The translations under genes were made by a program, and so were the position numbers. From an uncultured Sphingomonas sp. (lineage in GTDB: Bacteria; Pseudomonadota; Alphaproteobacteria; Sphingomonadales; Sphingomonadaceae): DNA of 64,000 nucleotides. Positions 7,950 to 52,487 of the stretch are shown in pieces. Within the stretch, counting starts at the first letter, position 1. The number at the start of each line of letters is the position of its first letter. The stretch is taken from NCBI RefSeq assembly GCF_913777625.1, contig NZ_CAJYTI010000010.1, forward strand, positions 175,095 through 239,094, given 5' to 3'. A model generated the notes under the pieces. It was not told the DNA's origin. It was given only the letters and a program-made list of their open reading frames with translations, and ran no database searches.

Positions 7950-8091
7950 GGCAGATTTCGCCTGAAACCTTTAAAGGAGTGCTAATCGCGGGCTTAGGTA
8001 GTTTTCCGCAAAGGACCCCCGACCTTTATAGCAGTTGCGATTCGCAACGTGGGCCAAGTGCCTGAAAAAATGATGGTTAATCGCCGTTCAG
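7950..8091 (-). promoter_or_regulatory. Sigma-factor promoter region: ftr-like box (7950-7962), TGCTATAAA (8025-8033), CtrA-like half-match (8076-8091)
   Basis: GGCAGATTTCGCC; minus-strand CTATAAA; minus-strand CTGA-N7-TTAAC. Confidence 0.45.
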
Positions 8092-10954: not shown

Positions 10955-10968
10955 CGCGGCGGCGTCCT

Positions 10969-11403: not shown

Positions 11404-11519
11404 CTTATAGCGACGTTTGCAGCGCGCGGTGCGAATACCCGGCAAATTTTGCCGCCTCCCGTGCGCGGACAGGCAATTTCGCCCTATCGATTTGGGCCGG
11501 CCCGCCACCCCTCTACAAT
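11404..11519. promoter_or_regulatory. Divergent flbT/flgE control region with two ftr-like palindromes and two -10-like motifs
   Basis: Minus CTATAAG 11404-11410; GGCAAATTTTGCC 11441-11453; GGCAATTTCGCCC 11472-11484; plus CTACAAT 11513-11519. Confidence 0.6.
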
Positions 11520-11570
11520 AAAGACGTCGCCGGCGTGGGGATCGCGCGGGCATCTCGAGGAGTTTTGAAC

Positions 11571-12878: not shown

Positions 12879-12906
12879 CGACCACTGAGGCCGGGGGACG
12901 CACGAC

Positions 12907-15012: not shown

Positions 15013-15025
15013 GGGAGCTGACCCG

Positions 15026-27841: not shown

Positions 27842-27897
27842 AGCTTCCCTGGACCTTCCGAAATATCGGCCGCGACGTCCGCACGTCCGATTTCCCT

Positions 27898-27930
27898 CTA
27901 TTATAGAACCGTCACCCGGCAATTTCTGCC
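27898..27930. promoter_or_regulatory. Divergent fliL/flgF control region: palindromic CTATTATAG plus ftr-like box
   Basis: CTATTATAG 27898-27906; GGCAATTTCTGCC 27918-27930. Confidence 0.6.
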
Positions 27931-27958
27931 TAGTGACCATTTTTCGAAGGACGGTCCG

Positions 27959-28699
27959 GTGGACATCTCTTCTTATGTGCTCCTCAGCCAGGAGCAGGCG
28001 CTGCGGCGCCGGATGGATGTGGTGGCGAACAACCTCGCCAACATGAATACGGTCGGGTTCAAGCGCGAGCAGCCGGTGTTCCGCGAATATGTGGAGAACA
28101 CCGACAGCGCGGTGAAGCCCGCCGAAAAGACATCGTTCGTGCTGGATTACGGCGCGGTGCACGATGCCTCGAATGGCGCCTTCCAGCCGACCGGCAACCC
28201 GCTCGACGTGATGATCGACGGGCCGGGCTATCTGGCGGTTCAGGCCGGCGACGGCACCACCGCCTACACGCGCGCAGGCTATGTGAAGGTGCTGGAGAGC
28301 GGCGAACTCGCCACCGCCGGCGGCCAGGTGATCCTGGGCGAGGGCGGCAAGCCGATCAAGATTCCGCCTGAGGAAGCCGGCAAGGTCAATGTGAATGCCG
28401 ACGGCACGGTGATGGGCGAGAACGGCCCGCTCGGCCGTATCGCGGTGACGGTGTTCAACGACGAGGCGGTGGTCGATCCGCGCGGTAACGGCATGTTCAG
28501 CGCGACCGGTGGCCGCGAGCTGCCGGCCAGCGCGACCAAGCTGGTGAGCGGCGGTGTCGAGGGCTCGAACGTCAATGCGATCGTCGAGACGACCGACATG
28601 ATCCAGATCCTTCGCGCCTACCAGACCAGCCAGAGCCTTTCGAACTCGATGTCGGACATGCGCAAGAGCGCGATCGACAAGCTCGGCCGCGTCAGCTGA
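27959..28699 (+). CDS. flgF: Flagellar rod protein FlgF
   Basis: GTG start with GAAGGA RBS; VANNLANMNTVGFK, TGNPLDVMIDG, YTRAG, EGSNVNAI. Confidence 0.95.
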   Translation: MDISSYVLLSQEQALRRRMDVVANNLANMNTVGFKREQPVFREYVENTDSAVKPAEKTSFVLDYGAVHDASNGAFQPTGNPLDVMIDGPGYLAVQAGDGTTAYTRAGYVKVLESGELATAGGQVILGEGGKPIKIPPEEAGKVNVNADGTVMGENGPLGRIAVTVFNDEAVVDPRGNGMFSATGGRELPASATKLVSGGVEGSNVNAIVETTDMIQILRAYQTSQSLSNSMSDMRKSAIDKLGRVS

Positions 28700-28721
28700 A
28701 TTTCATAGAGGAATCAAAACC

Positions 28722-29504
28722 ATGCGTACGCTCTCCATCGCTGCGACCGGCATGCTGGCCCAGCAGACCAATGTCGATGTGATCTCGAACAACATCGCGA
28801 ACATGAACACCACCGCGTACAAGAAGCAGCGCGCCGAGTTCCAGGACCTGCTCTACCAGCAGGTGTCGCGGCCCGGTGCCTCGACGGGGGGCGAGACCAA
28901 GGTGCCCGCCGGCATCCAGATCGGTTCGGGCGTGAAGACGGGCGGGGTCTATCGCATCAACGAGCAGGGCGCGACGACCCAGACCGGCAATCCCTATGAT
29001 CTGGCGATCCAGGGCCATGGCTATTTTCAGGTGAAGATGCCGGACGGTACCACCGCCTATACCCGCGACGGCTCCTTCCAGGTTTCCGACCAGGGCGAAC
29101 TGGTGACGCAGGACGGCTATCCGGTGGAGCCGGGCATCACGCTGCCGCAGGGTGCACTCGACGTCAGCGTGTCGAAGACCGGCCTGGTCGAGGTGACGGT
29201 GGCGGGCAACACCCAGCCGCAGCAGCTCGGCCAGCTCCAGCTTGCCCGCTTCATGAACGAGTCCGGGCTCGAGGCGAAGGGCGGTAACCTGTTCGTCGAG
29301 ACCGCGGCATCGGGCCAGCCGACGGTGGCCGCGCCCGGCGACCCGGGTATGGGCACGCTGACCCAAGGCTTCATCGAGGCCTCGAACGTCAACCCGGTCT
29401 CGGAAATCACCTCGCTGATCACCGCCCAGCGCGCCTATGAGATGAACAGCCGCGTGGTGAAGACTGCCGACGAGATGCTGGCGACGACCAGCCAGCTGCG
29501 CTGA
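28722..29504 (+). CDS. flgG: Flagellar distal rod protein
   Basis: ISNNIANMNTTAYKKQRAEFQDLLYQ, YTRDGSF, EASNVNPVSEI. Confidence 0.97.
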   Translation: MRTLSIAATGMLAQQTNVDVISNNIANMNTTAYKKQRAEFQDLLYQQVSRPGASTGGETKVPAGIQIGSGVKTGGVYRINEQGATTQTGNPYDLAIQGHGYFQVKMPDGTTAYTRDGSFQVSDQGELVTQDGYPVEPGITLPQGALDVSVSKTGLVEVTVAGNTQPQQLGQLQLARFMNESGLEAKGGNLFVETAASGQPTVAAPGDPGMGTLTQGFIEASNVNPVSEITSLITAQRAYEMNSRVVKTADEMLATTSQLR

Positions 29505-29932
29505 TGTCCGCGCTGCTGGGCCTCGCGCTGCTGGCGGCGGCTCCTGCCCAAGACGTACCGGTGGCGGTGGTTCAGCAGCCGGTCGCGCGTGGGGAGCGGA
29601 TCGAACAGGGCGACCTTTCGATCGAGACCCGGCCAGAAGCCGGAGCGCGCGGTGCGCTGCGCCCGGAGCAGGTCATCGGTATGGAGGCGGCGCGTGCGCT
29701 GTCGACCGGCACCGTTGTGCGCCAAGGCGACGTGATGAAACCGCAGCTGGTCAAGCGCGGCGAGCCCGTCACGGCGAAGATCGTGTCCGGCTCGCTCGTC
29801 ATCACCGCGGCCGGGCGTGCGCTCGGCGGCGGCGCCCAGGGCGATCCGGTGCGGATCGTCGTCACCGCTACCAACCGCACGCTCGACGGCATCGTCGATG
29901 GCTCGGGCACGGTGCGGATCTCCACTCCCTGA
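29504..29932 (+). CDS. flgA: P-ring assembly chaperone
   Basis: Signal peptide, SAF-like domain, LVKRGEPV...GRALGGGAQGDPVRI. Confidence 0.88.
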   Translation: MSALLGLALLAAAPAQDVPVAVVQQPVARGERIEQGDLSIETRPEAGARGALRPEQVIGMEAARALSTGTVVRQGDVMKPQLVKRGEPVTAKIVSGSLVITAAGRALGGGAQGDPVRIVVTATNRTLDGIVDGSGTVRISTP

Positions 29933-29943
29933 GGGACAGGTAT

Positions 29944-30693
29944 ATGCGTAAGATCATTCTGGCGGTGGCGCTCACCGCCACGCTTTCGGGCTGCGGTGCG
30001 GTCGGCCGGCTGAAATCGGTCGGCAAGGCGCCGAAGCTCACCGCGATGGACCCGGTCGATGCGCCGGATGTCGAGCCGTCGCTGGCCTCGCCGCTCGATC
30101 GCTCGAACCGTACGCGCCCGGCGCAGCCGGCCAGCGCGCCGACCGCGTCGCTGTTCCGCACCGGCGCCGGCGCCTTCTTCCGCGATCAGCGCGCCGGCCG
30201 GGTGGGCGACATCCTGACGATCAAGATCGCGATCGCCGACAAGGCCGATATCGGCAACAACACCTCGCGCACGCGCGGGGGCAGCGAAGCGGGCGGCGTC
30301 GCGGGCTTGCTCGGTTTGGAGACGCCGCTCAAGAAGCTGACCGGAAGCGATCCTTCAAAGCTGGTCGACACCAGCTCCACCTCCAAATACACCGGCGGCG
30401 GCACGACCAACCGATCGGAGACGATCAACATGACGATGGCCGCGATCGTTACCCAGGTGCTGCCCAATGGCAATTTGATGATCCGCGGCCGGCAGGAAGT
30501 GCGGGTGAACTTCGAGATGCGCGAGCTGATCGTCACCGGCATCATCCGGCCGGAGGACATCGCCCGCGACAATTCGATCCAGCACAGCCAGATCGCCGAA
30601 GCGCGCGTGATCTATGGCGGCAAGGGCCAACTGACCGACGCGCAGCAGGCGCGCTGGGGGCAGCAGATCTACGATGCCCTCTTCCCGTTCTGA
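29944..30693 (+). CDS. flgH: L-ring lipoprotein
   Basis: Lipobox LSGC, FRDQRAGRVGDILTI, VLPNGNLMIRG, IAEARVIYGG. Confidence 0.96.
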   Translation: MRKIILAVALTATLSGCGAVGRLKSVGKAPKLTAMDPVDAPDVEPSLASPLDRSNRTRPAQPASAPTASLFRTGAGAFFRDQRAGRVGDILTIKIAIADKADIGNNTSRTRGGSEAGGVAGLLGLETPLKKLTGSDPSKLVDTSSTSKYTGGGTTNRSETINMTMAAIVTQVLPNGNLMIRGRQEVRVNFEMRELIVTGIIRPEDIARDNSIQHSQIAEARVIYGGKGQLTDAQQARWGQQIYDALFPF

Positions 30694-30931: not shown

Positions 30932-31786
30932 ATGGCTTTTTCCGTTAACACCAACGTCGGCGCGATGGCGGCTCTGCAGAGCCTGAGCCAGACGCAGAAG
31001 GACCTGTCGACCACCCAGAGCCGCATCAACACCGGTCTCGCGGTTTCGTCGACCAAGGATGACTCGGCGACCTACACGATCGCCCAGGGCCTTCGCAGCG
31101 ATCTGGGCGGCCTCAAGTCGGTTTCTTCGTCGCTCAGCCGCGCCAAGAGCGTGACCGACGTCGCGGTTGCCGGTGCCGAGCAGATCTCCGACATCGTCAA
31201 CCAGATGAAGGCGAAGGCCTATCAGGCTGCTGACGCCGGCCAGACCACGGACAGCCGTACCCAGCTGAACAACGACTTCACCGCGCTGCGTGACCAGATC
31301 ACCACGATCGTGAACTCGGCCAACTTCAACGGCACCAACCTGCTGAAGAGCGGCGGCGGCACCGTGACGGCCCTGCAGTCGCTGCAGGACTCGAACACCG
31401 CGACCACGGCCTGGAACCCGGACTCGCTCTCGGTTGCCAACCAGGCGCTGGACCTCGGCGGCTCGAACATCACGATCGCCTCGACCGCGACGATCAGCAC
31501 CCAGGCTTCGGCCCAGGCGATGATCGACACGATCACCACCACGCAGAGCAACCTGACGGCGGTTCTGGGCAAGCTCGGCGCGGCTTCGCGCAAGATCGAC
31601 GCCCAGCAGGCGTTTACCAGCAAGCTCTCGGACGTGATCGACAGCGGCATCGGCAACCTCGTCGACGCCGATCTGGCGAAGGAATCGGCGAAGCTGCAGG
31701 CGCTGCAGGTCAAGCAGCAGCTCGGTGTGCAGGCTCTGTCGATCGCCAACCAGGCGCCGCAGACCATCACGTCGCTGTTCCGCTAA
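30932..31786 (+). CDS. fliC: Flagellin (short, Caulobacter Flj-like)
   Basis: SVNTNVGAMAALQSL, RINTGLAVSSTKDD, FNGTNLL, LVDADLAKESAKLQALQVKQQLG...LFR. Confidence 0.97.
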   Translation: MAFSVNTNVGAMAALQSLSQTQKDLSTTQSRINTGLAVSSTKDDSATYTIAQGLRSDLGGLKSVSSSLSRAKSVTDVAVAGAEQISDIVNQMKAKAYQAADAGQTTDSRTQLNNDFTALRDQITTIVNSANFNGTNLLKSGGGTVTALQSLQDSNTATTAWNPDSLSVANQALDLGGSNITIASTATISTQASAQAMIDTITTTQSNLTAVLGKLGAASRKIDAQQAFTSKLSDVIDSGIGNLVDADLAKESAKLQALQVKQQLGVQALSIANQAPQTITSLFR

Positions 31787-32758: not shown

Positions 32759-33424
32759 TTACTTGGTGATGCGTAGGATCATGCTCGTGGGGTACTGTGC
32801 TCCGTTCACCGAAATCACCGGGGATCCATTGATCATCTGGACGTCGTCAACCTTGCCGACTGCATTGGCAGTGGTGGTGATCTTTGCGCCCGCGTCCGTC
32901 GTCCCCGTCAGCTGCAGCTGGTAAAGACCGCTGTCCACCTTCTTGCCGGTGCTGGTGGTGCCGTCCCAGCTGAAGTTGCCCGACGTGCCGCTCACCTTCA
33001 GATCGAAGCTGTCGACCTTGCTGCCCTTGTCGTCGAGAATGGTGGCGGTGAGGCCGGAGACCGCGTTGGTCGCGCTCCAGTCCCATTGCGCCGGTGCCGA
33101 TGCGCTGAGCGCCGCCTTGTCGGAATCGAGCCGCACCGGCTGACCGATCACCGCCGAGGTGGTGGTGAGCGAGGTCATGTTGAGGTTCGACAGGATCGAA
33201 TTCAGCGTCGTGTTCTGCTTGATCGACTGTTCTACCTGCGAATACTGGACCAGCTGCTGCGTGTACTGGCTGCTGTCCATGGGATTGGTGGGATCCTGGT
33301 TCTGCAGCTGCGTGGTGAGCAGTTTCAGGAACATGTTGTAGTCGCCGGTGAGCGATGCGGTCGCAGCGCTGGTCGAGCTCTGCGCGGCGCTGGTCGAGCT
33401 GGTGGCGGAAGAAACGAGGGTCAT
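32759..33424 (-). CDS. flgD: Hook capping protein
   Basis: FLKLLTTQLQNQDPTNPMDSSQYTQQLVQYSQVEQ. Confidence 0.96.
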   Translation of the reverse strand: MTLVSSATSSTSAAQSSTSAATASLTGDYNMFLKLLTTQLQNQDPTNPMDSSQYTQQLVQYSQVEQSIKQNTTLNSILSNLNMTSLTTTSAVIGQPVRLDSDKAALSASAPAQWDWSATNAVSGLTATILDDKGSKVDSFDLKVSGTSGNFSWDGTTSTGKKVDSGLYQLQLTGTTDAGAKITTTANAVGKVDDVQMINGSPVISVNGAQYPTSMILRITK

Positions 33425-33433
33425 GCGCTACTC

Positions 33434-34987
33434 CTAGGCGATGAGGTCGACCTGGCCGTCGCTCCGGACCGGGCGATAGGCTGCGGTCTGGATGTCGGGT
33501 TCGTCCTGAAACTGCTGGTTGCTGCCGCGCGACTGCCCCTGCTGCTGCGAGGCCGACTGGCCGTTCGCATTGCTGCCGGTACCGCCGTCGCGGCTCTCGA
33601 AGCGGAAGCTGCCGGCGTCGCTGCGGATGCCCGCCTGATCGAGCGCGCGGCCGAGGTCGGGGGCGTCCTGGCGCAGCAGGTCGAGCGTGTGCTGGCTGTC
33701 CGCCCGCATCGTCGCCTGGACGCGGCCATTGTCGTCGAACGCCAGCGTCACTTCGACGCGGCCGAGCTCGGCGGGGTTGAGGCGAACCCGCAGCGTATCC
33801 TCGCCGGCATCCACCTTGCGCGCGATCTCGACGCCGAGGCTGCGGCCGAGTTCGCCGACGCGGCCGTTGATCACGGGCTCGCCGGACGCGGGCGCTGCGG
33901 TGTGGGCGGCGGCCGCCGGGGCTGCAGCCTGGGTCGGCGTGGCGGTAGGCAGCGGCTGAACGGCCACGTGCCGGGTATCGACCGCGGCGAGTTGCTGCGC
34001 AAAAGGCTGCGGGTTGCCTTCGCCCTTGGCACCGCTATCGGCGGCCCCGCTGCCCGCTTGGCCGGCCACGGCGCGGGCGAGCTCGGTCGTCTTGTCCGCA
34101 GCAGCCGGGGTGGGCGTGGTATCGCCGGCGATTGCCGTCTCCACTTTGCTCGTGCGGACCGCGATCGTGCCTTCGTTCTTCGCCGTAGCGGTCGTGCGAG
34201 GCGCTGCCGGCACCGTCGGGGCGGCCTGTACGGCGGTAGCCTGGGGCACCGCGACAGGCTGGGGTTGCGCTCGGGCGCCCGCCACCGCCACGTCGGGCGC
34301 GGCGGGCAGGTCGTCGGACGGTTTCGTGCGGAGCGGCTTGCCGCTGGTCTTCGCCGGGAGCGTGGCTTCCGGAAGCGCCAGTCCGTCCGCGTCGGGCTTG
34401 GCCGGGGCGTCGAGGGCGACACCGTCCCCCGCCTGCGGCTGCCCAGCGGTCGCATCTGCCGGCGGGGTGATTTTGGCCAGGACGCGCGTCACGGCCGTCT
34501 TCGCGACGTTGGCGGGTTGCGCGGCGGTCGGCGTCTTGGGCGCCGCCTCGACTGGGTTTGGCGTCGCGGCGGCGACATCGCTCGGTTTCAGCTCGCCGGT
34601 GGCTGGGGCGACAGGTTTCGCAAGGGCCTTGGCAATGGCATCGGCCAGCGGGTTGCCACCTGCCACCACCGTGGGGGCCGCGGCTATCGGGGCGGCGGTA
34701 GCGAGCAGCTGCGTCATCGGCACCTGGGGACGATCACTCGAGACCGGCAGCGTCTCGGCGTCCGCGCTGCCGGGCAGCAGCGCGGCGCCGGTCTGTGCTG
34801 GGATCGTCGCGGGCTGCGTCGTCGCGAAGGATCCGAAGACGGGCGTGCCGAACACCAGGCCGGCTTGTGCGGCATTGGCCGTGCCGGTGCCGAGCAGCCC
34901 TGCAAATCCTGTGCCCGTCGCGGCATCGGCACCAGCCGCTGGTGTGGCGGAGGTTGCAAGGGGAGAGCCGATGTTCGTGACGTTCAT
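33434..34987 (-). CDS. fliK: Hook-length control protein
   Basis: Long Ala/Pro/Thr-rich N-terminus; C-terminal LRVRLNPAELGRVEV...DLLRQDAPDLGRALDQAG; upstream of flgD. Confidence 0.9.
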   Translation of the reverse strand: MNVTNIGSPLATSATPAAGADAATGTGFAGLLGTGTANAAQAGLVFGTPVFGSFATTQPATIPAQTGAALLPGSADAETLPVSSDRPQVPMTQLLATAAPIAAAPTVVAGGNPLADAIAKALAKPVAPATGELKPSDVAAATPNPVEAAPKTPTAAQPANVAKTAVTRVLAKITPPADATAGQPQAGDGVALDAPAKPDADGLALPEATLPAKTSGKPLRTKPSDDLPAAPDVAVAGARAQPQPVAVPQATAVQAAPTVPAAPRTTATAKNEGTIAVRTSKVETAIAGDTTPTPAAADKTTELARAVAGQAGSGAADSGAKGEGNPQPFAQQLAAVDTRHVAVQPLPTATPTQAAAPAAAAHTAAPASGEPVINGRVGELGRSLGVEIARKVDAGEDTLRVRLNPAELGRVEVTLAFDDNGRVQATMRADSQHTLDLLRQDAPDLGRALDQAGIRSDAGSFRFESRDGGTGSNANGQSASQQQGQSRGSNQQFQDEPDIQTAAYRPVRSDGQVDLIA

Positions 34988-35064: not shown

Positions 35065-37146
35065 TCAGCCAATTACGCCGAGCGCGCGGATGCGCGCGCG
35101 CGCGTGGATTTCGTTCTGCGACAGGACCACCGTCGCAGGGCGCACACGTTCGATGATCGAGCGGACGAACGGACGGATCGACGGGCTGGTGAGCAGGCAG
35201 GGGATCTCGCCGTCCTGCGCCAGTCGGTCATAGGTCTCGCGCACCGCGCCGATGAACTGCTGGAGCGCCGAGGGCGCCATCGCCAGCTGGCGATCGTCGC
35301 CGGTGCCGAGGATGCTGTCCGCGAACGCCTGGTCCCAGTCGGCCGAGAGCGTCACTACCGGGATCGCATCGCCGCGCGCCTGCGAGGCGCTGATCTGACG
35401 GGCCAGGCGGCTGCGGACATGCTCGGTGATGTAGGTGAGGTTGTTGCTGTGCGGCGCCGACTCCGCGATGCCTTCGAGGATCGTCGGCACGTCGCGGATC
35501 GAGATGCCTTCGGCGAGCAGGTTCTGCAGGATCCGCTGCACGCCCGAGATCGAGACCTTCGACGGGATGATGTCCGCCACCAGCTTTTCCGATTCCTTGT
35601 GGACTTCGGTCAGCAGCTTCTGTGTCTCGGTATAGGAAAGCAGATCGGAGATATTGTCCTTCACCAGCTCGGTGAGGTGCGTGGCGATGATCGTGCCGCA
35701 GTCGACCACGGTGAGGCCGCGGAAGCCGGCTTCGTCGCGCAGCTCGCGATCGATCCACAAGGCGGGCAGGCCGAACACCGGCTCCTTGGTCAGCTCGCCC
35801 GGCAGGCCGACCGGGCCGCCGCCCGGGTTGATCAGCAGCAGCTTCTCCAGCCGGATGTCGCCGCGCGCCGCCTCGGTCTCCTTGATCGAGATGACATATT
35901 CGTTGGGTTTCAGGCCCATATTGTCGATGATGCGGACCGAGGGCAGGACGAAGCCGAACTCGGTCGCCATCTGGCGGCGCAGCGCGCGCACCTGGTCGTC
36001 GAGCCGCGGTTCGCGGGTATCGTCGTTGATCATCGGCAGCAGCGCGTAGCCGATCTCGACGCGCACCGCGTCGATCGCCAGCGTCTGCGAGATCGGCTGC
36101 TCGACGGCCTGGGCCTGGGCGACTTCCTGCGCGGCGGCGAGGCGGGCCTTGGCTTCCTTGGCGCGCGCGCGCCTCGACATGTCCCAAGCGGCCCAACCCG
36201 ACAGCGCCGAGAAGGCGGCAAACGGGATGAAGGGCAGGCCCGGCATCAGCGCCAGCGCGCCCATCAGGAACGAGACCATCCCGAAGGCCTTGGGATAGCG
36301 GCCGAGCTGGTCGCCGAGCGCGGCGCCGGTCTTGCCCGCCACGCCGCCCTTGGAGACGAGCAGGCCGGCGGCGGTCGAGACGATCAGCGCTGGGATCTGG
36401 CTGACCAGACCGTCGCCGGCGGTGAGCACGGTATAGGTGCGGAACGCCTCGCCCACCGGCACGCCGTGGACGATCACGCCCATGGCGAGGCCGACGACGA
36501 TGTTGATCGCGGTGATCAGCAGGCCGGCGATCGCGTCGCCCTTCACGAATTTCGAGGCACCGTCCATCGCGCCGTAGAAGCCGCTCTCGGCCTCCACTTC
36601 GGCGCGGCGGGCCTTGGCCTGTTCCTCGTTGATCATGCCGGCGGAGAGATCGGCGTCGATCGCCATCTGCTTGCCGGGCATCGAGTCCAGGCTGAAGCGC
36701 GCGGCGACTTCGGCGATGCGGCCCGCACCCTTGGTGATGACGACGAAGTTGATGACCACCAGGATGATGAAGATGGTGAGGCCGATCACGGTCTCGCCGC
36801 CCATCAGGAACTCGCCAAAGGCCCCGATCACGCCGCCGGCCGCGTCATGCCCCTCATGGCCGTGGCCGAGGATCAGGCGCGTCGAGGCGAGGTTGAGGCC
36901 CAGCCGCAACATCGTCGCGATCAGCAGGATCGTCGGGAAGGCGCTGAGTTCCAGCGGCTTCTCGATGAACAGCGCCGTCATCAGGATCATCACCGAGAGG
37001 GTGATGGACAAGGCCAGCCCCATGTCGAGCAGCCAGCCCGGCATCGGCAGGATCAGCATCGCGATGATCGCGATCACGCCACCGGCCAGCGCCATGTCGC
37101 GGTTGGCGCCGATGCGTTGGAACAGGTTCAGGACGGCGGGGGGCAT
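35065..37146 (-). CDS. flhA: Flagellar export gate protein
   Basis: FPTILLIATMLRLGLN, ITKGAGRIAEVAARFSLDSMPGKQMAIDADL, FYGAMDGASKFVKGD. Confidence 0.97.
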   Translation of the reverse strand: MPPAVLNLFQRIGANRDMALAGGVIAIIAMLILPMPGWLLDMGLALSITLSVMILMTALFIEKPLELSAFPTILLIATMLRLGLNLASTRLILGHGHEGHDAAGGVIGAFGEFLMGGETVIGLTIFIILVVINFVVITKGAGRIAEVAARFSLDSMPGKQMAIDADLSAGMINEEQAKARRAEVEAESGFYGAMDGASKFVKGDAIAGLLITAINIVVGLAMGVIVHGVPVGEAFRTYTVLTAGDGLVSQIPALIVSTAAGLLVSKGGVAGKTGAALGDQLGRYPKAFGMVSFLMGALALMPGLPFIPFAAFSALSGWAAWDMSRRARAKEAKARLAAAQEVAQAQAVEQPISQTLAIDAVRVEIGYALLPMINDDTREPRLDDQVRALRRQMATEFGFVLPSVRIIDNMGLKPNEYVISIKETEAARGDIRLEKLLLINPGGGPVGLPGELTKEPVFGLPALWIDRELRDEAGFRGLTVVDCGTIIATHLTELVKDNISDLLSYTETQKLLTEVHKESEKLVADIIPSKVSISGVQRILQNLLAEGISIRDVPTILEGIAESAPHSNNLTYITEHVRSRLARQISASQARGDAIPVVTLSADWDQAFADSILGTGDDRQLAMAPSALQQFIGAVRETYDRLAQDGEIPCLLTSPSIRPFVRSIIERVRPATVVLSQNEIHARARIRALGVIG

Positions 37147-37172: not shown

Positions 37173-38507
37173 TCAAGGGGCGGGCGAGACGGCGATGCCC
37201 GCCTCGATGAAGGTGCGCAGCTTGTTGCGCATCGTGCGCACCGAGATGCCGAGGATGTTCGATGCCGAGGTGCGGTTGCCGTGGCAGCGCTCGAGCGTCT
37301 GGAGGATCAGCTCGCGCTCCACCTCTTCCACCGTGCGGCCGACCAGGCTGTTGATGTCGAGCGCGTTCGCATCGGCATTGAGGTCGGCAAGCGGGGTGCC
37401 GTCGGCACGCACCAGGTCGCCCGGCGTGATCGCGGCGCCGCGGCCGAGCAGGATGGCGCGATGCACCGTCTCGTCCAGTTCGCGGATGTTGCCCGGCCAG
37501 CTGTAGCGCTGGAGCAGCGCCAGTGCCTCGTCGGTGAAGGCGCGCTCGGGCACGCCGTCGACTTCGGCATGGCGCTTGGCGAAATAGCGGGCGAGGGCGA
37601 GGATGTCCTCGCCGCGGGCGCGGAGCGGCGGCACCTCGACGCGGACCAGCCCCAGCCGGACCAGCAGATCGGCGCGGAACGAACCGCTGTCGACCAGCGC
37701 GTCGAGGTTCAGGCTCGATGTCGCGATCAGCCGCGCATGGAACGGGATCAGCTCGTTGCCCGCCAGGCGGCGGAACTGCTGCTTCTGGAGCACGTCGTGC
37801 AGTTTGGCCTGGAGCGCGGGCGACAGCATGCCCACTTCGCGGATCAGCACGGTGCCATGGCCGGCCTTTTCGAGCCGACCGATGCGGCGGGCGACCGCGC
37901 CCGGAAAGGCGCCGGCCTCATGGCCGAACAGCTCGGATTCGAGCACGTCGGGGGCAACCCCGGCGCATTCGGCGACCAGCATCGGCTGCGGACGGCCCGA
38001 GGCATCGTGCACGGCACGCGCCATCATTTCCTTGCCGCTGCCCTTCTCGCCGGTGATCAGCACCGGCGCGCTGCTGGGGGCGACGCCCGCGGCAAGCGAG
38101 AGCGCGCGGGCGAGGGCGGGGTGAACGCCGATCCAGGCCGGGGCCTTGCGCTCGACGACCGAGGCAATGGCCGCCGCGATCAGTTCGCGTTGCGGCGGAA
38201 GCGGTACGTAATCGCGGGCGCCGGCGCGGATCGCCGCAACCGCGCGCTCGGCCGGGGCATCGATGCCGCAGGCCAGCACCGCGATGGTGAAGCGTTCGCT
38301 GCGGATGCTCGCCATGAAGCCGGCGATGTCCGCCTCGACGTCGATCATCACCAGATCTGCGCCGCCCTGGCGCAGCTGGATCAGGCCGTCGGCCGGCGTG
38401 TCGGCCATCGCCACTTCGGCGCCGGCGCTGCGCGCCAGCTCGGCGGCGAGGCGGAACTCGCTGCCCGGCGCACCGATCAGGAGCATGCGTATGGAGCTGG
38501 CCATCAA
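37173..38507 (-). CDS. flbD: FlbD-like enhancer-binding protein (REC-AAA+-HTH) with degenerate sigma54-activation motifs
   Basis: FlbD-like receiver (VLACGIDA...YVPLPP), Walker A GEKGSGKE, GAFPGA instead of GAFTGA, Walker B VLIRE, intact HTH GNRTSASNILGISVRTMRNKL; fliN-flbD-flhA synteny. Confidence 0.88.
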   Translation of the reverse strand: MMASSIRMLLIGAPGSEFRLAAELARSAGAEVAMADTPADGLIQLRQGGADLVMIDVEADIAGFMASIRSERFTIAVLACGIDAPAERAVAAIRAGARDYVPLPPQRELIAAAIASVVERKAPAWIGVHPALARALSLAAGVAPSSAPVLITGEKGSGKEMMARAVHDASGRPQPMLVAECAGVAPDVLESELFGHEAGAFPGAVARRIGRLEKAGHGTVLIREVGMLSPALQAKLHDVLQKQQFRRLAGNELIPFHARLIATSSLNLDALVDSGSFRADLLVRLGLVRVEVPPLRARGEDILALARYFAKRHAEVDGVPERAFTDEALALLQRYSWPGNIRELDETVHRAILLGRGAAITPGDLVRADGTPLADLNADANALDINSLVGRTVEEVERELILQTLERCHGNRTSASNILGISVRTMRNKLRTFIEAGIAVSPAP

Positions 38508-38863
38508 CGGTCGGGCCGCACGATTTCGGTGAGCGTGACGCCCAGCGCGTTGTCGATCAGCACGACTTCGCCGCGGGCGATCAGCCGGTCGTTGACGAAG
38601 ATGTCGACCGGTTCGCCGACCCGGCGGTCCAGTTCGAGCACGGTCCCCGAACTGAGCGCCAGCAGGTCGCCGATCGGCATCCGCGCGCGGCCGAGCACGG
38701 CCTGTACCTTGACCGGCACGTCATGCACGGCCTCCAGGCCGGCGCTGCTGTTCTGCGCTTCGGGCGTGCTGCCCGGCAGCTCGAAATCCTCGAAATCGGG
38801 GGCGGGGGCCGGCTGGGGCTCGGGGCCGTCCGACGGGATGATGTCGTGGGGATCGATGTTCAT
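38504..38863 (-). CDS. fliN: Flagellar motor switch protein FliN
   Basis: DVPVKVQAVLGR, VLELDRRVGEPVDIFVNDRLIARGEVV. Confidence 0.95.
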   Translation of the reverse strand: MNIDPHDIIPSDGPEPQPAPAPDFEDFELPGSTPEAQNSSAGLEAVHDVPVKVQAVLGRARMPIGDLLALSSGTVLELDRRVGEPVDIFVNDRLIARGEVVLIDNALGVTLTEIVRPDR

Positions 38864-38874
38864 CTGCAAAAATC

Positions 38875-40503
38875 CTATGCGTTCATCCACTGGCGGATCA
38901 CCGAGGCCGCCTCAGGCGGGCTCGCGGCGATGGCCGAGCCGATCCGCTTCAGCGCGGAGAGCTTGATCCGCCCATCCACCTGGGCGAGGGCGATTTCCTG
39001 ATCGAGCAGCGGGGCGTCGCTCGCCGTCATCTGCTCGAGCTGCTGGAGCGCTTCCGGATCACCGTCGGCGGCGCGGGCCGTGAGCAGGCGCATCTCTTCA
39101 TTGTGCTGCTGTTGCTGCTGGGCCTCGAGCGCCATCATCTCGGGCTCGATCGCCAGCGGCTCCGGCTTGGGCTTGAGCATGCGCAGCGCGAGCAGGCCGA
39201 CGCCGGCGATCAGGGCGAGCTGGAGGAAGGTCCAGATCTTGTCCATCGGCAGCTTGGAGAAGAGGCTCTCCTTGGCGTCCTCGACGGGCACCGCCGAGAA
39301 GGGCATGCTCTCCACCACCACGCTGTCGCCGCGCTGGGTGTCGATGCCGGTGGCATTCTCCACCAGGCGCTGGAGGCGCTGGATCTGGTCGGTCGGCAGG
39401 CCCTTGGGGCCGCCATCGACCATCACCGCGATGGTGAGGCGGGTGACCTTGCCCGGCGCGCGCAGCGTGACCGTCTTGGTCGAGCTGTTCGAGAAGGTGG
39501 TGTCTTCCGAAGTCTGGTTGCTGGCCGACTGGCGCGAGGTGCCGGGCGCGGCCGGATTGGCCTTGGCATCGGGCAGCTGGTTGGAGACCGAGGTGGTCTG
39601 CGGGCCGGCCTCGTTTTCCTTGTTCTGGTCGCCGGTCTCGACGCTCACCTTGCGGGCGACGACCTGCTTGTCGGGATCGAACACGTTCGATTCCTCACGG
39701 GTCTGGTCGCGGTCGATCTGGGCCGAGACTTCGGCGCGGACCTTGCCCTCGCCGACGATCGGCTGGAGCAGTGCCTCGATCTCGTCGCGCAGCTTGGCTT
39801 CCACCGCCTGCTGGCGCTCGTCGGCATCGGCGGCGCCGGCGGTATCGGGATCGCCCGCGCGGGCGAGCAGCGCGCCGGTCTGGTCGACGACCGAGACCGC
39901 GTCCGGCGAAAGCTCGGGCACCGAGGAGGAAACGAGATAGCGGATCGAGGCGATCTGCTCCGATCCCATATGCCCCTTGGTCTTCACCGTGACGGCAGCC
40001 GTCGCCTTGCGGCTTTCGCTCGCGAACATCGCGCGCTCGGGCATGACGATGTGGACGCGGGCCGCGGTGACGGTCTGGATGGTCTGGATCGACTTGGCGA
40101 GCTCGCCTTCGATCGCGCGCGTCTCGTTCATCTTGGCGCGGCTTGCGGACACGCCGAAGGGCTGTTCGGAGTCGAGTACCTCATAGCCGATCTTGCCGCC
40201 CAGCTTCTCGCCGGCCATGCTCATCCGCAGCTGGGCGAGCTTGTCCTCCGGCGCCATGATCGCGGTGCCGTCGGCGGAAAGGGTGTAGGGGACGTTCTGG
40301 GCCTTCAGCTTCTCGGTGATCGTCGACGCCGCGGCGGGATCGAGATCGGTGTAGAGATAGCCCATGTTCGACTTGGAGCTGCTCATTGCCACCACGGTGA
40401 GTGCCGCGAGCAGCGCGAACGCCACACCGCCCATCATCGCGAGCCGCTTGGTGCCGAGTTGCGTCACCAGATTCTTGATCGCTTCCAAAGCCGCCCCATG
40501 CAC
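38875..40503 (-). CDS. fliF: MS-ring protein
   Basis: Two TM segments, GYEVLD...FGVS, RAIEGELAKSI, ARVHIVMP, RLTIAVMVDG; start could be TTG 40488. Confidence 0.96.
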   Translation of the reverse strand: MHGAALEAIKNLVTQLGTKRLAMMGGVAFALLAALTVVAMSSSKSNMGYLYTDLDPAAASTITEKLKAQNVPYTLSADGTAIMAPEDKLAQLRMSMAGEKLGGKIGYEVLDSEQPFGVSASRAKMNETRAIEGELAKSIQTIQTVTAARVHIVMPERAMFASESRKATAAVTVKTKGHMGSEQIASIRYLVSSSVPELSPDAVSVVDQTGALLARAGDPDTAGAADADERQQAVEAKLRDEIEALLQPIVGEGKVRAEVSAQIDRDQTREESNVFDPDKQVVARKVSVETGDQNKENEAGPQTTSVSNQLPDAKANPAAPGTSRQSASNQTSEDTTFSNSSTKTVTLRAPGKVTRLTIAVMVDGGPKGLPTDQIQRLQRLVENATGIDTQRGDSVVVESMPFSAVPVEDAKESLFSKLPMDKIWTFLQLALIAGVGLLALRMLKPKPEPLAIEPEMMALEAQQQQQHNEEMRLLTARAADGDPEALQQLEQMTASDAPLLDQEIALAQVDGRIKLSALKRIGSAIAASPPEAASVIRQWMNA

Positions 40504-40538: not shown

Positions 40539-40590
40539 TTTATAGAAAGGGGGCGGAGCGGCAGTTTCTGCCGGGTGGGAATTTTTTGCC
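40539..40590 (-). promoter_or_regulatory. fliF promoter region: TTCTATAAA plus two ftr-like boxes
   Basis: Minus CTATAAA 40539-40545; GGCAGTTTCTGCC 40560-40572; GGAATTTTTTGCC 40578-40590. Confidence 0.6.
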
Positions 40591-40683: not shown

Positions 40684-41451
40684 ATGGAAACGAACAGGCG
40701 GGGCTTTACCGCCGGACTGGCATCGCTGTTGCTGGTGCCGAAAGCGGCGGCGGCGATCCAGACGCACGCCGGCGCGGTAAGCCTGACCTATGACGACGGC
40801 CTGTCCTCGCAACTCGACGTGGCGGTGCCCGCGCTGGAACGCCGAGGCTTGCACGGCACCTTCTATGTGACCTGGGACAATATCGTCGATCGCGTCGCCG
40901 ACTGGGCCAAGCTGCCCGCGCGCGGCCACGAACTCGGCGCGCATACGGTGCACCATCCCTGCAACCTGGGGCCGCTCAGCGCCCGGCAGTACGCCGATCG
41001 CGAGATGCTGCCGGTCGAAGCATGGCTCGATCAGGTGGCGGGCAAGGCCCGGCCGCACGACTTCGCCTATCCGTGCGATGTCACCAATCTTGGTCCTGGC
41101 ATCGCCAATGTGCAGCGCGCGCGTTTCGAGGCGATGCTGCACCGGCTGGGGCTACAGAGTGCCCGCAACAGTGAAGGTCCGCCCAATCCGGCGGGATGGG
41201 TACGGCGCCATCCGTTCCGCCTCCAGGCGCTCGCCGTGGGATATGATGCGCAGGCGCTCGACGTGTTCAACTATCTCCAGCGCGCCCGCAACGAGGGGCG
41301 CTGGGCGATCCTGGTGTTCCACCAGGTCGGCGACGGGCCCGAGAGCGACGGCGCCGTCACCGCCGTCCAGCACGACGCGCTGCTCGACATGGTGTTGGGA
41401 AGCGGGCTGGCAGTGCGGACGGTGGGCGAGCAGCTTCAGCACATCGCCTGA
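40684..41451 (+). CDS. Tat-exported polysaccharide deacetylase (CE4/NodB-like)
   Basis: Tat motif NRRGF; SLTYDDG, HELGAHTVHH, FAYP, ILVFH. Confidence 0.88.
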   Translation: METNRRGFTAGLASLLLVPKAAAAIQTHAGAVSLTYDDGLSSQLDVAVPALERRGLHGTFYVTWDNIVDRVADWAKLPARGHELGAHTVHHPCNLGPLSARQYADREMLPVEAWLDQVAGKARPHDFAYPCDVTNLGPGIANVQRARFEAMLHRLGLQSARNSEGPPNPAGWVRRHPFRLQALAVGYDAQALDVFNYLQRARNEGRWAILVFHQVGDGPESDGAVTAVQHDALLDMVLGSGLAVRTVGEQLQHIA

Positions 41452-43301: not shown

Positions 43302-44396
43302 TCAGGCCTTGGCGGTGAGCTCGTCCAGGGCATGTGGCTCGTGCATCGGGCAGCCATTGAACCGCCCGCGATAGTCTGCCGAGAATCTATATGGTTCCTT
43401 GCGCGCCCGATTGACCCCGCCCAGCGGCTGGTGGGCCGCCAGCCCATGCCAGGGCGCGAAGGACAGCCGGTCTTCGATCCGGTCGCTTTCCCCCGGCACC
43501 CAGCCGCGCTGCGGCGCAACTTCCAAAGTGGCAACGGTGCGATAGGGGCTCGCCGTCTCGTCCCAGACGATCGAGGCGTCCTCGACCGGCATGGTCTCGA
43601 GATCGGTGCAAAGCTGCACGCGGAACTCCCATATACCGCCTTGCTCGGCGAGCAGTTCGTTCACCTCCTCCCGGATCGCGTCGGGGCGACCGGTGGCGTT
43701 GATCGTCTCCTCGGCGAAGTCCTTGATCGCGGAGACCGGCGCGAGCTGGAACTTGGCGATATACTCGCCATAGCGATAGGGTGTCTGGCTGAAATAGGTG
43801 GCGCCCAGCGGGTGCACCGGCTTGGCGCCGCCCAGCGAGCTGAGCAGGGCGGACTTGCCGCCAACCGCCTCCAGCGCCGCCTCGAAGCTGCGCAGTACCG
43901 CGGAGAGCAGTTTCTTCGCGCCCTCCGCCTTGTCGGTCGTGCCGGCGAGCAGCTTGAGGTTGCCGAGGAACTTCTTCGCATCGGGGGCGGCGAAGGCGGG
44001 CGCATTGACCATCACGAAGTCCTGCGTCGTGTCCCCCTCGCTGCCCGGGAGGCGGTCGCCCTCGACGCCGAGCACCTTCAGCGCGGCGCCGCGGGGCAGG
44101 CGGATCGAGTCGTCGAGAATGTCGCCCGCGTTGGTGGAGAAGCGCAGGATCGCTTCGTGCGGGCCGGGGGTGGCGAACAGGCCTTGCGCCAGTTCAGGCG
44201 GGAGTCCCTCGGCCACCGTGAACGTGCCTCGCGCCAGGCCATGGCCCTTGGCATGTACCGAGCGCACGGCATGCTGGTAATCCCGCGACGTGGTGTCGAG
44301 GATCTTCTCGAACTGTTCCTTCAGCCCCGCGATCGTCTCCGCCTCGTCGGGCTGGGGCTGTTCGACGGACGGCGCGAAACGGACGGGCTGCGGCAT
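43302..44396 (-). CDS. Catalase-like heme protein (small catalase-related family)
   Basis: RSVHAKGHG (distal His), LRFS, DFVMVN, LSFAPWHGLAAHQPLGGVNRARKEPY. Confidence 0.88.
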   Translation of the reverse strand: MPQPVRFAPSVEQPQPDEAETIAGLKEQFEKILDTTSRDYQHAVRSVHAKGHGLARGTFTVAEGLPPELAQGLFATPGPHEAILRFSTNAGDILDDSIRLPRGAALKVLGVEGDRLPGSEGDTTQDFVMVNAPAFAAPDAKKFLGNLKLLAGTTDKAEGAKKLLSAVLRSFEAALEAVGGKSALLSSLGGAKPVHPLGATYFSQTPYRYGEYIAKFQLAPVSAIKDFAEETINATGRPDAIREEVNELLAEQGGIWEFRVQLCTDLETMPVEDASIVWDETASPYRTVATLEVAPQRGWVPGESDRIEDRLSFAPWHGLAAHQPLGGVNRARKEPYRFSADYRGRFNGCPMHEPHALDELTAKA

Positions 44397-44465: not shown

Positions 44466-45113
44466 TTAGTGGAGCAACAGGCTTTCCAACTCCGCCGCAA
44501 CTGCGTCGCGGCGCTGTTGCGCGTTCAGCGCCAGCCCGCCTTCGTCCCAGTTGATCAGCGCGTCGCCGAGCGCCAGCGTCGAATCCGGAGCGACGGTGAG
44601 GCTCAGCCTGCGGCGATCCCGGGACTGGCGGTCGGCAATCTTGGCCTCGATGTCGTCGACCAGATCGGGGTGGACGCGCACCTGCAGTTCGGTGCCGCGT
44701 GCCACCTGGCCCAGCACCCGGCCGATCGCGGCGTCGATCGCGTCGCCCGGTGCCCGCTGGATCGCCCGTGCGGCGATGTGGTCGGCCGCGGCAAGTGCCA
44801 CTTCGGTCGCCTCGCTGGTCACGCGCTCGGCAACCTCGCTGAACTGGGCGTCGATCACCTCGATGCCGGCGTGCAGCGCGTCGACCGCGCTCAGCAGCGC
44901 CACTTCGCGTTCGGCCCGCGCCTGGGCGAGCCCGGCCTCGAAGCCCTCGGCGCGCGCGCGATCAATCACCGCCTGCTGGTCCGCCTTGAGCAACGCAACT
45001 TCCGCGCGCAGCGCGGCGAGTTCGATCAGGGCATCCTCGTCGACCAGCTTCTTGTCGGACACGGGGGCGGAAAACACGCGGTCGAAGGCGAACCGCTCGA
45101 CATGGATGCTCAT
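44466..45113 (-). CDS. fliH: FliH/FlbE-family export regulator
   Basis: ERFAFDRVF N-terminus, ARAEGFEAG GxxxG repeat, LQVRVHP, WDEGG; downstream of fliG. Confidence 0.85.
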   Translation of the reverse strand: MSIHVERFAFDRVFSAPVSDKKLVDEDALIELAALRAEVALLKADQQAVIDRARAEGFEAGLAQARAEREVALLSAVDALHAGIEVIDAQFSEVAERVTSEATEVALAAADHIAARAIQRAPGDAIDAAIGRVLGQVARGTELQVRVHPDLVDDIEAKIADRQSRDRRRLSLTVAPDSTLALGDALINWDEGGLALNAQQRRDAVAAELESLLLH

Positions 45114-45126
45114 GCTGCCATGCTCC

Positions 45127-46167
45127 TCAGATAATCATCGCGTCGTCGGACTTGGGATCGACCAGCAGGATCTCGCCGCGATCGGCAAGGTCCTTGGCCA
45201 GGCGGACGAGGCTCGACTGCGCCTCTTCGCAATCCCGCGCGCGCACCGGCCCCATGCCGGCCATGTCCTCGCGCATCAGCTTGGCGGCGCGCTCGGTCAT
45301 CGCGTTGAAGAACATCTGCTTCAGCTGATCCGGGGCGCCCTTCAGCGCCAGCGCCATCTCGCGCTTGTCGGCATTGCGGACGATCGACGCGATCGCCGGC
45401 GGCAGCAGGTTGGCGAGATCCTCGAAGGTGAACATCAGCGCGCGGATCCGCTCGGCGCTCTCCGGCGCCTTGGCGTCGAGCGCGGTGAGCATCGCCTCCT
45501 CGGTCGAGCGGTCGAGCGAGTTGAACAGCTCGGCCATGCTCTCGTGCGGATCGCGCTTCTGCGAGCGGGAGAGGTTGGTCATGAACTCGGTCTTGAGCGA
45601 CTGCTCGACTTGGTTGATCACTTCCTTCTGCACCGTGTCCATCCGCAGCATGCGCATGATCACGTCCACGGCGAACTCGCGCGGCAGCTCTGCAAGCACG
45701 CGGGCGGCATGGTCGGGGCGCAGCTTCGACAGGATGACGGCGACGGTCTGCGGATATTCCTGCTTGAGCGCGCCAGCCAGCACCGTCTCGGAGACGTTGG
45801 ACAGCTTGTCCCACATCGTCCGGCCGGAGGGACCACGGATATCCTCCATGATCTCCTTCACCTTGTCGTTCGGCAGGATGCCGGCGAGCAGACGCTCGGT
45901 CGTCTCGTAGCTGCCATGGAGCGAGGCCATGCTGGCCACTTCGCCGGTGAACTGGACGAGCAGGAATTCCACGACCGTGCTGGGGATCCTGCCCAGCCCT
46001 GCGATCACCGAAGACAGCTCCTTGATCTCGTCGGTGGAGAGCTGGTCCCAGATCGGGGCGCCATGCTCCTTGCCGAGCGCAAGCATCAGCGCGGCCGCGC
46101 GCTGCGGTCCGGAGAATTTCTTCAGTTCGGGCGGTTCACCCACCGTGGCGACAGAAGCCATGCTCAT
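45127..46167 (-). CDS. fliG: Flagellar rotor protein
   Basis: GPQRAAALMLALG, MWDKL, EYPQTVAVILS, MFTFEDL, DMAGMGPVRARD. Confidence 0.96.
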   Translation of the reverse strand: MSMASVATVGEPPELKKFSGPQRAAALMLALGKEHGAPIWDQLSTDEIKELSSVIAGLGRIPSTVVEFLLVQFTGEVASMASLHGSYETTERLLAGILPNDKVKEIMEDIRGPSGRTMWDKLSNVSETVLAGALKQEYPQTVAVILSKLRPDHAARVLAELPREFAVDVIMRMLRMDTVQKEVINQVEQSLKTEFMTNLSRSQKRDPHESMAELFNSLDRSTEEAMLTALDAKAPESAERIRALMFTFEDLANLLPPAIASIVRNADKREMALALKGAPDQLKQMFFNAMTERAAKLMREDMAGMGPVRARDCEEAQSSLVRLAKDLADRGEILLVDPKSDDAMII

Positions 46168-46213: not shown

Positions 46214-46270
46214 CTATTATAGGATTGTTAGGGGAAGGGACGGATCGGATCATGGTTAATTATTCTTCAA
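46214..46270. promoter_or_regulatory. Divergent fliG/flaY control region: palindromic CTATTATAG plus CtrA-like box
   Basis: CTATTATAG 46214-46222; minus TTGA-N7-TTAAC 46255-46270. Confidence 0.55.
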
Positions 46271-52441: not shown

Positions 52442-52450
52442 CTTATAGGA
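52442..52450 (-). promoter_or_regulatory. TYCTATAA -10-like motif
   Basis: Minus-strand TCCTATAAG 38 nt upstream of the flgI ATG. Confidence 0.55.
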
Positions 52451-52487
52451 AGAGGAGAGCCAACACGGCTTGAGAGGGCCTGATTTC

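Follow-up and report, generated by a model that had tools for sequence, protein, structure and literature searches.

The gene flbD, on the minus strand (37173..38507) of a 64,000-nucleotide stretch of DNA from an uncultured Sphingomonas sp. (NCBI RefSeq assembly GCF_913777625.1, contig NZ_CAJYTI010000010.1, positions 175,095 to 239,094), hereafter called the window, specifies a motif-degenerate orthologue of the flagellar regulator FlbD. In Caulobacter, FlbD activates the sigma-54-dependent class III/IV promoters and has FliX as its partner. We think it probable that a sublineage of the Sphingomonadaceae took its alpha-type flagellar regulon off sigma-54, and that FlbD is there a non-hydrolysing DNA-binding regulator acting at sigma-70-family promoters. 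A first-pass annotation of the window had proposed that the protein works without sigma-54, either at sigma-70-type promoters or as a repressor. That proposal was supported by substitutions found throughout the lineage, by flagellar promoters devoid of -24/-12 elements, by palindromes placed close to the promoters and by the deletion of the AAA+ domain in sister genera.

Motif states, conservation and phylogeny of FlbD

In bacterial enhancer-binding proteins (bEBPs), the Thr of the GAFTGA motif contacts sigma-54, with Ser being tolerated; the Walker B Asp coordinates Mg, and the Asn of NCAA is the glutamate-switch Asn of the PspF-type members. ATP hydrolysis depends on the Walker B motif hhhhDE and on two Asn residues, that of the glutamate switch and that of sensor I. 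The window FlbD was aligned with canonical FlbDs (coordinates of protein features are on the minus strand). Its L1 loop (residues 199-204, 37896..37913) reads GAFPGA instead of GAFTGA, with Pro in the place of the Thr, and its Walker B strand (37833..37856) reads GTVLIREV instead of GGTLLLDEI, with R223 (37839-37841) at the Asp position. The switch Asn of VNCAA is replaced by E180 (37968..37970) within VAECAG, the helix after Walker B is LHDVLQK instead of LLRAIQE, and the sensor I region (37704..37733) is RLIATSSLNL instead of RIIATSNRDL, with S265 substituting for the Asn. The Walker A motif GEKGSGKE (residues 153-160, 38028..38051), both Arg fingers (FRADLLVRL), sensor II (PPLRARGEDI), WPGNIREL and the helix-turn-helix (HTH) sequence GNRTSASNILGISVRTMRNKL are kept. 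The Fis-type HTH (residues 392-431, 37215..37334) is almost invariant and close to those of canonical FlbDs. The first-pass annotation had described the altered motifs as well as the retained Walker A, Arg fingers, WPGN and FlbD-type HTH; the alignment matched every one of them, and the coordinates were exact. It had also excluded a sequencing error, a view borne out by identical proteins on several independent contigs and by the invariance of the changed residues in relatives.

The replaced residues lie in a domain whose fold is predicted to be intact. Pfam recognized Sigma54_activat at residues 126-290 (153.6 bits), AAA_lid_14, and HTH_8 at residues 392-431, and the AAA+ core plus lid spans residues 126-366 (37410..38132). 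The AlphaFold model had a mean predicted local distance difference test score (pLDDT) of 81.6, with most of the AAA+ core at 85-96. Its AAA+ domain superimposed on those of NtrC1, FlrC, ZraR and PspF with a template modelling (TM) score of 0.9 and a root-mean-square deviation of 1.4-2 Å, and the best full-length structural match was NtrX, one of the atypical enhancer-binding proteins (EBPs). The model strands 176-180 and 219-223, which are neighbours in the known AAA+ strand order, have E180 and R223 at their tips, and the two residues could form a locking salt bridge as a charge-swapped glutamate switch. Residues 6-118 (38154..38492) form an atypical receiver (REC)-like domain, recognizable from the strands and helices of the model; its Pfam Response_reg score, 24.1 bits, is below the cut-off. 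This domain has no acidic pocket and its Lys105 is replaced (YVPLP), as is the case in FlbD generally. The top NCBIfam match of the protein was the FlbD equivalog NF050807 at 460 bits, under the 750-bit cut-off. Among the full-length matches this score was the second lowest, between those from genomes G231 (422 bits) and G183 (470 bits), and it reflects divergence of the window FlbD, not a separate origin. The Sigma54_activat score was the lowest among the bEBPs of the genome.

The degenerate motif states are common to more than 120 homologues, all with an intact reading frame. Pro, or rarely Ala or Val, stands at the Thr position of GAFTGA in 120 homologues with identities as low as 56%, and neither Thr nor Ser was found there; the Walker B Asp position is Arg throughout, with no Asp. 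In a set of 30 sequences of 55-95% identity, R223, K159, G199, A200, F201 and A204 are invariant and E180 is at least 90% conserved. A single genome represented each species or family in the sample. In 37 other families of the alphaproteobacteria, the FlbD orthologues carry NCAA, GAF(T/S)GA or GSFTGA, LLLDE(I/V), and ATSN or ATTN. One further family, represented by G183, has an intermediate FlbD that keeps VNCAT but has GAFEGA, LYLRDI and AGSCHDL. Fully canonical FlbD is still present in six of the sampled Sphingomonadaceae genomes. A quick maximum-likelihood search placed all degenerate FlbDs in one clade (Shimodaira-Hasegawa-like approximate likelihood ratio test, SH-aLRT, 100) nested within the canonical FlbDs of the Sphingomonadaceae, with a stem of 1.36 substitutions per site compared with a median terminal branch of 0.36. 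By synteny and by this tree, the window FlbD is a vertical orthologue of FlbD.

The first-pass annotation had pointed to a comparison of selection on the AAA+ and HTH domains. In close Sphingomonas pairs, the AAA+ core had a ratio of nonsynonymous to synonymous substitution rates (dN/dS) of 0.06-0.13, compared with 0.05-0.13 in REC and 0.02-0.06 in the HTH. The AAA+ core is thus under purifying selection. Judged from its sequence, the AAA+ domain would be enzymatically dead yet is not decaying. ATP binding by the window FlbD is predicted from the conservation of Walker A together with the purifying selection.

Flagellar promoters and FlbD-type palindromes

Promoters were scored with a sigma-54 position weight matrix (PWM), which is our own approximation of the published consensus. 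In 23 flagellar and motility upstream regions of the window the maximum score was 8.5; the 95th percentile of random 250-nt windows was 8.9, and canonical flgI promoters reached 15-16. No -24/-12 box was found within ±10 kb of nine Sphingomonas flbD loci, except for one coincidence inside a coding sequence. One late promoter, that of flgI, was then compared across orthologues. In canonical-FlbD genomes of nine families, the element YTGGCACG-N4-TTCGCW precedes flgI in 9/9 cases, 65-130 nt before the start. The same split was predicted, and then found, inside the Sphingomonadaceae: five of the six canonical-FlbD genomes have TTGGCACG-N4-TYNGCA (PWM 15-16), while all eight genomes with degenerate FlbD, mini-FlbD (described below) or only the sigma factor sigma-X (also below) have (C)ATCCTATAAG-type boxes and a sigma-54 PWM of at most 10. 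Altogether, a sigma-54 promoter of the form YTGGCACG-N4-TYNGCW precedes flgI by 65-130 nt in 14/15 canonical-FlbD genomes, and such a promoter is present in 0/11 non-canonical ones (these eight plus the window genome, G006 and G183); in 11/11 of the latter there are CCTATAAG-type boxes and the best sigma-54 PWM score is at most 10. In the window, a CTATAAG box (52442..52448, minus strand) stands upstream of flgI in the place of the sigma-54 promoter of canonical-FlbD genomes. At loci L150, L151 and L152 (G034, G140 and G052), no more than about 14 nt separate the upstream CCTATAAG box from the start codon chosen for flgI; if this start is called correctly, the mRNA would be leaderless or nearly so.

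The sequence YCTATAAK is six-fold enriched in the window (8 observed compared with 0.31 in shuffles). Genome-wide there are 89 sites, which include non-flagellar intergenic ones. The idea of a flagellum-specific element was therefore dropped, and YCTATAAK may be a general -10 box.

The density of sigma-54 PWM hits within ±10 kb of flbD, 0.82 per 10 kb for canonical and 0.49 for Sphingomonas loci, did not discriminate between the two because flbD neighbourhoods consist mostly of early genes; the flgI orthologues were compared instead. A sigma-54-like motif that is conserved in Sphingomonas loci (TTGGCRTAGACGTTGCT / CTGGCATAGACGTTGCT, 47341-47357, minus strand) had the high score of 17.8. It is found within flaEY in antisense orientation, where a conserved SNVYA peptide is encoded, and a coding coincidence is therefore more probable than a promoter. 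Two further hits were set aside, one at 52515-52531, inside or at the start of fliX, and one at 40717-40733, inside a deacetylase gene. A sigma-54-like box, TTGGAAAGCCTGTTGCT (44473-44489, minus strand), which only close relatives share, falls in the last part of fliH and precedes a catalase-like gene (43302-44396) by 79 nt.

A search for rpoN or an intact bEBP elsewhere in the genome, a check raised by the first-pass annotation, found both. The rpoN gene is at C15:42642-43121, and five bEBPs have canonical motifs: NtrC, a PrsR-like protein, a PspF-like protein, RtcR and one more. Strong -24/-12 boxes adjoin the rtcR-like and pspF-like genes. Since rpoN is present in 150 of 151 Sphingomonadaceae genomes, with or without flagella, its presence says nothing about the use of sigma-54 by flagellar genes, and its presence or absence was abandoned as an indicator of sigma-54 independence. 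The window's genome (G000) also encodes a second degenerate NtrC-family regulator at C20:189768-191111 (L008), with the Walker A sequence GPAGSGKT and without a GAFTGA region.

The FlbD-type palindrome, GGCA-N5(AT-rich)-TGCC or frequently the longer ACYNGGCA...TGCCNRGT, has only about seven strong copies in the 4.17-Mb genome: at the fliF promoter, at fliL/flgF, at fliI/flgE, at the fliO-P versus flgB junction on contig C20 and at three other sites. At the fliF promoter, the palindrome GGCAGTTTCTGCC (40560..40572) is located 14 nt upstream of CTATAAA (40539..40545, minus strand), the -10-like box of the fliF-fliN-flbD-flhA operon, and a second, imperfect box, GGAATTTTTTGCC (40578..40590), lies 18 bp upstream of the first, centre to centre. 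The copy in the fliL/flgF divergent region (27918..27930) is 11 nt upstream of the fliL CTATAAT, the copy between fliI (minus strand) and flgE (plus strand) (11441..11453) is 30 nt upstream of a CTATAAG box, and that at C20:282665, in the fliO/flgB block, is 31 nt from a CCTATAAG box. The gap between the palindrome and CTAYAA is thus 11-14 nt at fliL and fliF and 28-31 nt at fliI, fliO and two other sites; an imperfect copy before flgE is also 28-31 nt upstream of a CTAYAA box. The fliF block, CTAGGCAAAAAATTCCCACCCGGCAGAAACTGCCG-N12-14-CTATAA, has been preserved across 24 Sphingomonas loci whose flanks cannot be aligned; it has minor substitutions in lineages of 66-78% identity, and locus L075 has a related imperfect double box. 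The three strong palindromes outside recognizable flagellar genes are at C26:11039, C39:53259 and C7:79765; two of them are 28-29 nt upstream of CTATAAT or CTACAAT boxes of genes that may belong to the regulon as additional members.

In canonical genomes, the same palindrome stands 90-130 bp upstream of the sigma-54 promoter of flgI, and in canonical Sphingomonadaceae it stands 50-120 bp downstream of it; both appear to be enhancer positions. All forms of FlbD, whether canonical, degenerate or mini, have kept the HTH recognition sequence. The sharing of the palindrome and the conservation of the HTH indicate that the pair of operator and reader is ancestral and that its geometry relative to the promoter changed.

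Sigma-X, shortened FlbD forms and cluster layout

The flagellar cluster in the window includes a very divergent sigma-70-family factor (6845-7897, minus strand), here called sigma-X. It matched region 4 with 28.9 bits and region 2 below threshold, with weak NCBIfam matches to RpoH and extracytoplasmic function (ECF) models, and public annotations are generic only. Homologues were found in 2 of 121 alphaproteobacterial families, with one genome in each, namely the window genome and G183, both of which have a non-canonical FlbD. Within the Sphingomonadaceae, 12 of 151 genomes have a clear homologue (at least 48% identity), and none of the six canonical-FlbD genomes has one. Sigma-X is thus confined to lineages of the Sphingomonadales whose FlbD is non-canonical. 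Upstream of sigma-X are TTAACCAT, which is CtrA-like, a CTATAAA and an imperfect FlbD-type box (7950..7962), the last located between the -10-like box and the start codon. The CtrA half-site-like TTAACCAT occurs at 46222 and 8031 (minus strand), upstream of the fliG and sigma-X -10-like boxes, a placement that suggests CtrA control of early genes. Sigma-X, which the first-pass proposal had not taken into account, may be the actual sigma partner of the window FlbD in place of RpoD.

The genomes with sigma-X were also searched with the C-terminal 175 residues of FlbD, which identified short genes missed by the full-length family search (E <= 1e-110). In eight related genomes the slot between fliF-fliN and flhA is occupied by a gene of 140-185 codons whose product has REC, or what remains of it, at the N-terminus, followed immediately by an HTH with 63-83% identity to that of the window FlbD (L116 in G140, L117 in G052, L119 in G117, L120 in G006, L122 in G028, L124 in G034, L129 in G123 and L135 in G111). 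An AAA+ segment is absent from every frame of these eight mini-FlbD genes, and the AAA+ domain would therefore be dispensable in these relatives. The protein database holds 1117 mini-FlbD-like clusters in two size classes, one of about 140-155 amino acids (Pfam HTH only) and one of about 185-190 amino acids (REC and HTH). Their sources are Novosphingobium, Sphingobium, Sphingosinicella and some Sphingomonas, and the sole annotation that they carry is "helix-turn-helix domain-containing protein". FliX is present together with the full-length degenerate FlbD (G000, G112 and G183) and with the long REC-HTH form (G117), and is absent from all seven genomes with the short, REC-truncated mini-FlbD. 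This co-occurrence suggests that FliX works through the REC domain.

The surroundings of flbD correspond to a flagellar cluster of the Caulobacter type. The gene occupies its slot in fliF (38875-40503), fliN (38504-38863), flbD, flhA (35065-37146), a minus-strand operon that continues to fliK (33434-34987) and flgD (32759-33424). The coding sequence has 444 codons when counted from the TTG at 38507; database copies of the protein start at the ATG at 38504 (443 amino acids), which overlaps the fliN stop and is more likely the start. Elsewhere in the window are fliI (9593-11092, minus strand), flgE-flgK-flgL (11535-15934, with flgE on the plus strand), fliM/fliL (26271-28162), flgF-G-A-H (about 27971-30693), a flagellin gene (30932-31786), fliH/fliG (44466-46161), flaEY (about 46255-49035), flgB (49039) and flgI (51297-52403). 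The gene fliX (52470-52904, plus strand; PF10768, 69 bits) is divergent from flgI, and the window also has a PilZ gene and a motA...che...motB operon. A second flagellar block, on contig C20 (~280900-285200), has fliO/fliP on the minus strand opposite flgB-flgC-fliE-fliQ-fliR-flhB on the plus strand. The nearest named relatives are Sphingomonas elodea ATCC 31461 (98% identity) and S. azotifigens (95%).

Proposed mechanism, competing explanations and significance

In the proposed mechanism, the protein would fold as a REC-like domain, an AAA+ domain and an HTH, and would recognize the ancestral palindrome GGCA-N5-TGCC. ATP hydrolysis would have been lost through the replacement of the Walker B Asp by Arg, of the switch Asn by Glu and of the sensor I Asn by Ser, and engagement of sigma-54 because the GAFTGA Thr is Pro. 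FlbD would then bind DNA at promoters read by a sigma-70-family holoenzyme containing either RpoD or the sigma factor encoded at 6845-7897. The strongest putative operators are promoter-proximal at early (class II-type) operons, that is, fliF-fliN-flbD-flhA, fliL, fliI and fliO/flgB. The retained activity is for this reason most likely the ancestral negative feedback of FlbD on early genes, its own operon included, and activation from sites centred near -50 is possible. We infer that the AAA+ domain serves as a non-catalytic module for oligomerization, nucleotide binding or FliX-dependent gating. The transcription start sites, the sigma factor used and the sign of regulation are predictions from sequence. 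A wider reading, which we advance only tentatively, is that the regulon moved from sigma-54 to sigma-X while the FlbD series records the conversion of an ATPase into an HTH protein. The series would run from canonical FlbD to a dead pseudo-ATPase with FliX, then to REC-HTH with FliX and finally to a short HTH protein without FliX. In the same tentative scheme, the dead AAA+ ring of the window FlbD would be a FliX-gated assembly-checkpoint sensor and the partner of sigma-X.

Several observations weigh against the proposal of a sigma-54-independent, non-hydrolysing FlbD or limit its reach. Purifying selection on the AAA+ core implies that this domain still does something, and a residual, unconventional nucleotide turnover is conceivable. 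Genome G124 (L147), which has a canonical FlbD and is sister to the degenerate clade, has no sigma-54 box within 220 nt upstream of flgI; it may represent an intermediate stage or an operon arrangement. The assignment of CTATAA as a -10 box is putative, and, as YCTATAAK is also non-flagellar, the box does not discriminate between RpoD and sigma-X. No clear FlbD box was found at the late promoters (flgI, fliK and flagellin), which leaves direct control of late genes unsupported. In addition, the sign of regulation does not follow from the positions of the operators alone, which range from about -30 to -50.

The explanation closest to our proposal holds that FlbD is a repressor only, that positive control of the late genes passed to the cluster sigma factor and that the AAA+ domain is a slowly decaying passenger. 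It agrees with the restriction of strong boxes to early-type operons (fliF, fliL, fliI, fliO/flgB and the sigma-X leader), with their absence from late promoters, with mini-FlbDs that do not need the AAA+ domain and with the repression of fliF known for Caulobacter FlbD (PMC3930126). We nevertheless regard it as unlikely: boxes near -50 (fliI, fliO and the imperfect flgE site) are more typical of an activator, and an AAA+ dN/dS of 0.06-0.13 denotes no decay. It also overlaps largely with the preferred proposal, from which it differs solely by excluding activation.

That FlbD is still a sigma-54 activator, either because GAFPGA and an Arg in Walker B are tolerated or because it forms mixed rings with an intact bEBP from which hydrolysis and sigma-54 contact would come, seems very improbable, even though the genome has rpoN and five canonical bEBPs and a Caulobacter-like sigma-54 hierarchy has been assumed in work on Sphingomonas (PMC8921679). 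The -24/-12 boxes are missing at the flagellar operons of the window and at flgI of the 11 non-canonical genomes, substitutions have become fixed at four independent positions of catalysis or contact, the AAA+ domain has been removed in sister genera, and rpoN, being found almost throughout the family, is uninformative. The first-pass annotation had left a heterohexamer with an intact bEBP as an escape route, which is made unlikely by the lack of sigma-54 promoters at flagellar genes. We give equally little credence to a non-functional remnant heading for loss. The weakest Sigma54_activat score among the bEBPs of the genome, the score below the FlbD equivalog cut-off and the long stem branch would fit such a remnant, but the frame is intact in more than 120 homologues, dN/dS is far below 1 in every domain, the HTH and the substituted residues are invariant, the operators are conserved, and up-regulation of flbD along with flagellar genes has been reported for a welA mutant of Sphingomonas (PMC8921679).

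The sigma-54-independent FlbD proposed here can be compared with several known regulators. Pseudomonas aeruginosa FleQ, a flagellar master bEBP, can both repress and activate a sigma-70 promoter with no hydrolysis of ATP, and the window FlbD model resembles its AAA+ domain closely in structure; FleQ differs in having full sigma-54 activator function and in depending on cyclic di-GMP and FleN, and its sigma-70 role was added and is not a replacement. Caulobacter crescentus FlbD has GAFTGA (10.1101/2023.06.06.543975) and a dual role that includes fliF repression (PMC3930126). It is the orthologue of the window FlbD by synteny and tree, with the same REC (probably unphosphorylated), AAA+ and Fis-type HTH architecture and a nearly identical HTH recognition sequence; in both organisms the fliX gene is divergent from flgI, and the window palindromes match in kind the putative enhancers beside sigma-54 promoters of canonical genomes. 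Unlike Caulobacter FlbD, the window FlbD has other residues in place of the GAFTGA Thr, the Asp of Walker B and the Asn of both the switch and sensor I, and its predicted target promoters have promoter-proximal operators and no -24/-12 elements.

Atypical EBPs as a kind are already known and not new. Established cases are TyrR, PhhR, HupR, HsfA, NtrX and VpsR, which act with sigma-70 RNA polymerase or as repressors (PMC6158489), and the NtrC proteins of Rhodobacter capsulatus and Caulobacter (10.1101/2023.06.06.543975). Like the window FlbD, the former six have a bEBP architecture with no functional GAFTGA and a non-consensus Walker B; all are outside the FlbD orthogroup. The VpsR site is immediately upstream of -35, in a class II-like arrangement (PMC6158489), but Vibrio cholerae VpsR depends on cyclic di-GMP, controls biofilm genes and has Asn-Asp in Walker B instead of the Arg-Glu seen here. 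The two NtrCs are alphaproteobacterial bEBPs re-targeted to sigma-70 promoters (10.1101/2023.06.06.543975), with the L1 loop deleted and Walker B kept; R. capsulatus NtrC depends on the binding of ATP, and for Caulobacter NtrC hydrolysis is expected to be important. In contrast to these deletions, the window FlbD keeps the length of the loop, and point substitutions hit both contact and catalysis. In the searchable literature, no series from canonical through motif-degenerate to AAA+-deleted forms in one syntenic slot was found for the six atypical EBPs, and no paper tied FlbD to a missing GAFTGA; those that contain both terms concern Caulobacter NtrC only.

What the FlbD case adds is a switch of promoters throughout the regulon, a new sigma factor that co-occurs with it and a graded series with the loss of the AAA+ domain at its end. 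The sigma-54-free bEBPs have so far been scattered cases; here the change can be traced in one orthogroup and one syntenic slot, alongside a matching change of the target promoters and a candidate replacement sigma factor. The relationship was hidden by automated names, which are "sigma-54-dependent transcriptional regulator" for the degenerate clade and the generic HTH name for the mini-FlbDs. One study of Sphingomonas is explicit in assuming the sigma-54 scheme of Caulobacter (PMC8921679), and the proposal, if it holds, corrects the working assumption that late flagellar genes of Sphingomonas obey the FlbD/sigma-54 scheme of Caulobacter. It also makes two questions testable in Sphingomonas strains that are tractable and non-pathogenic, namely how a regulon switches sigma class and what a catalytically dead AAA+ domain contributes.

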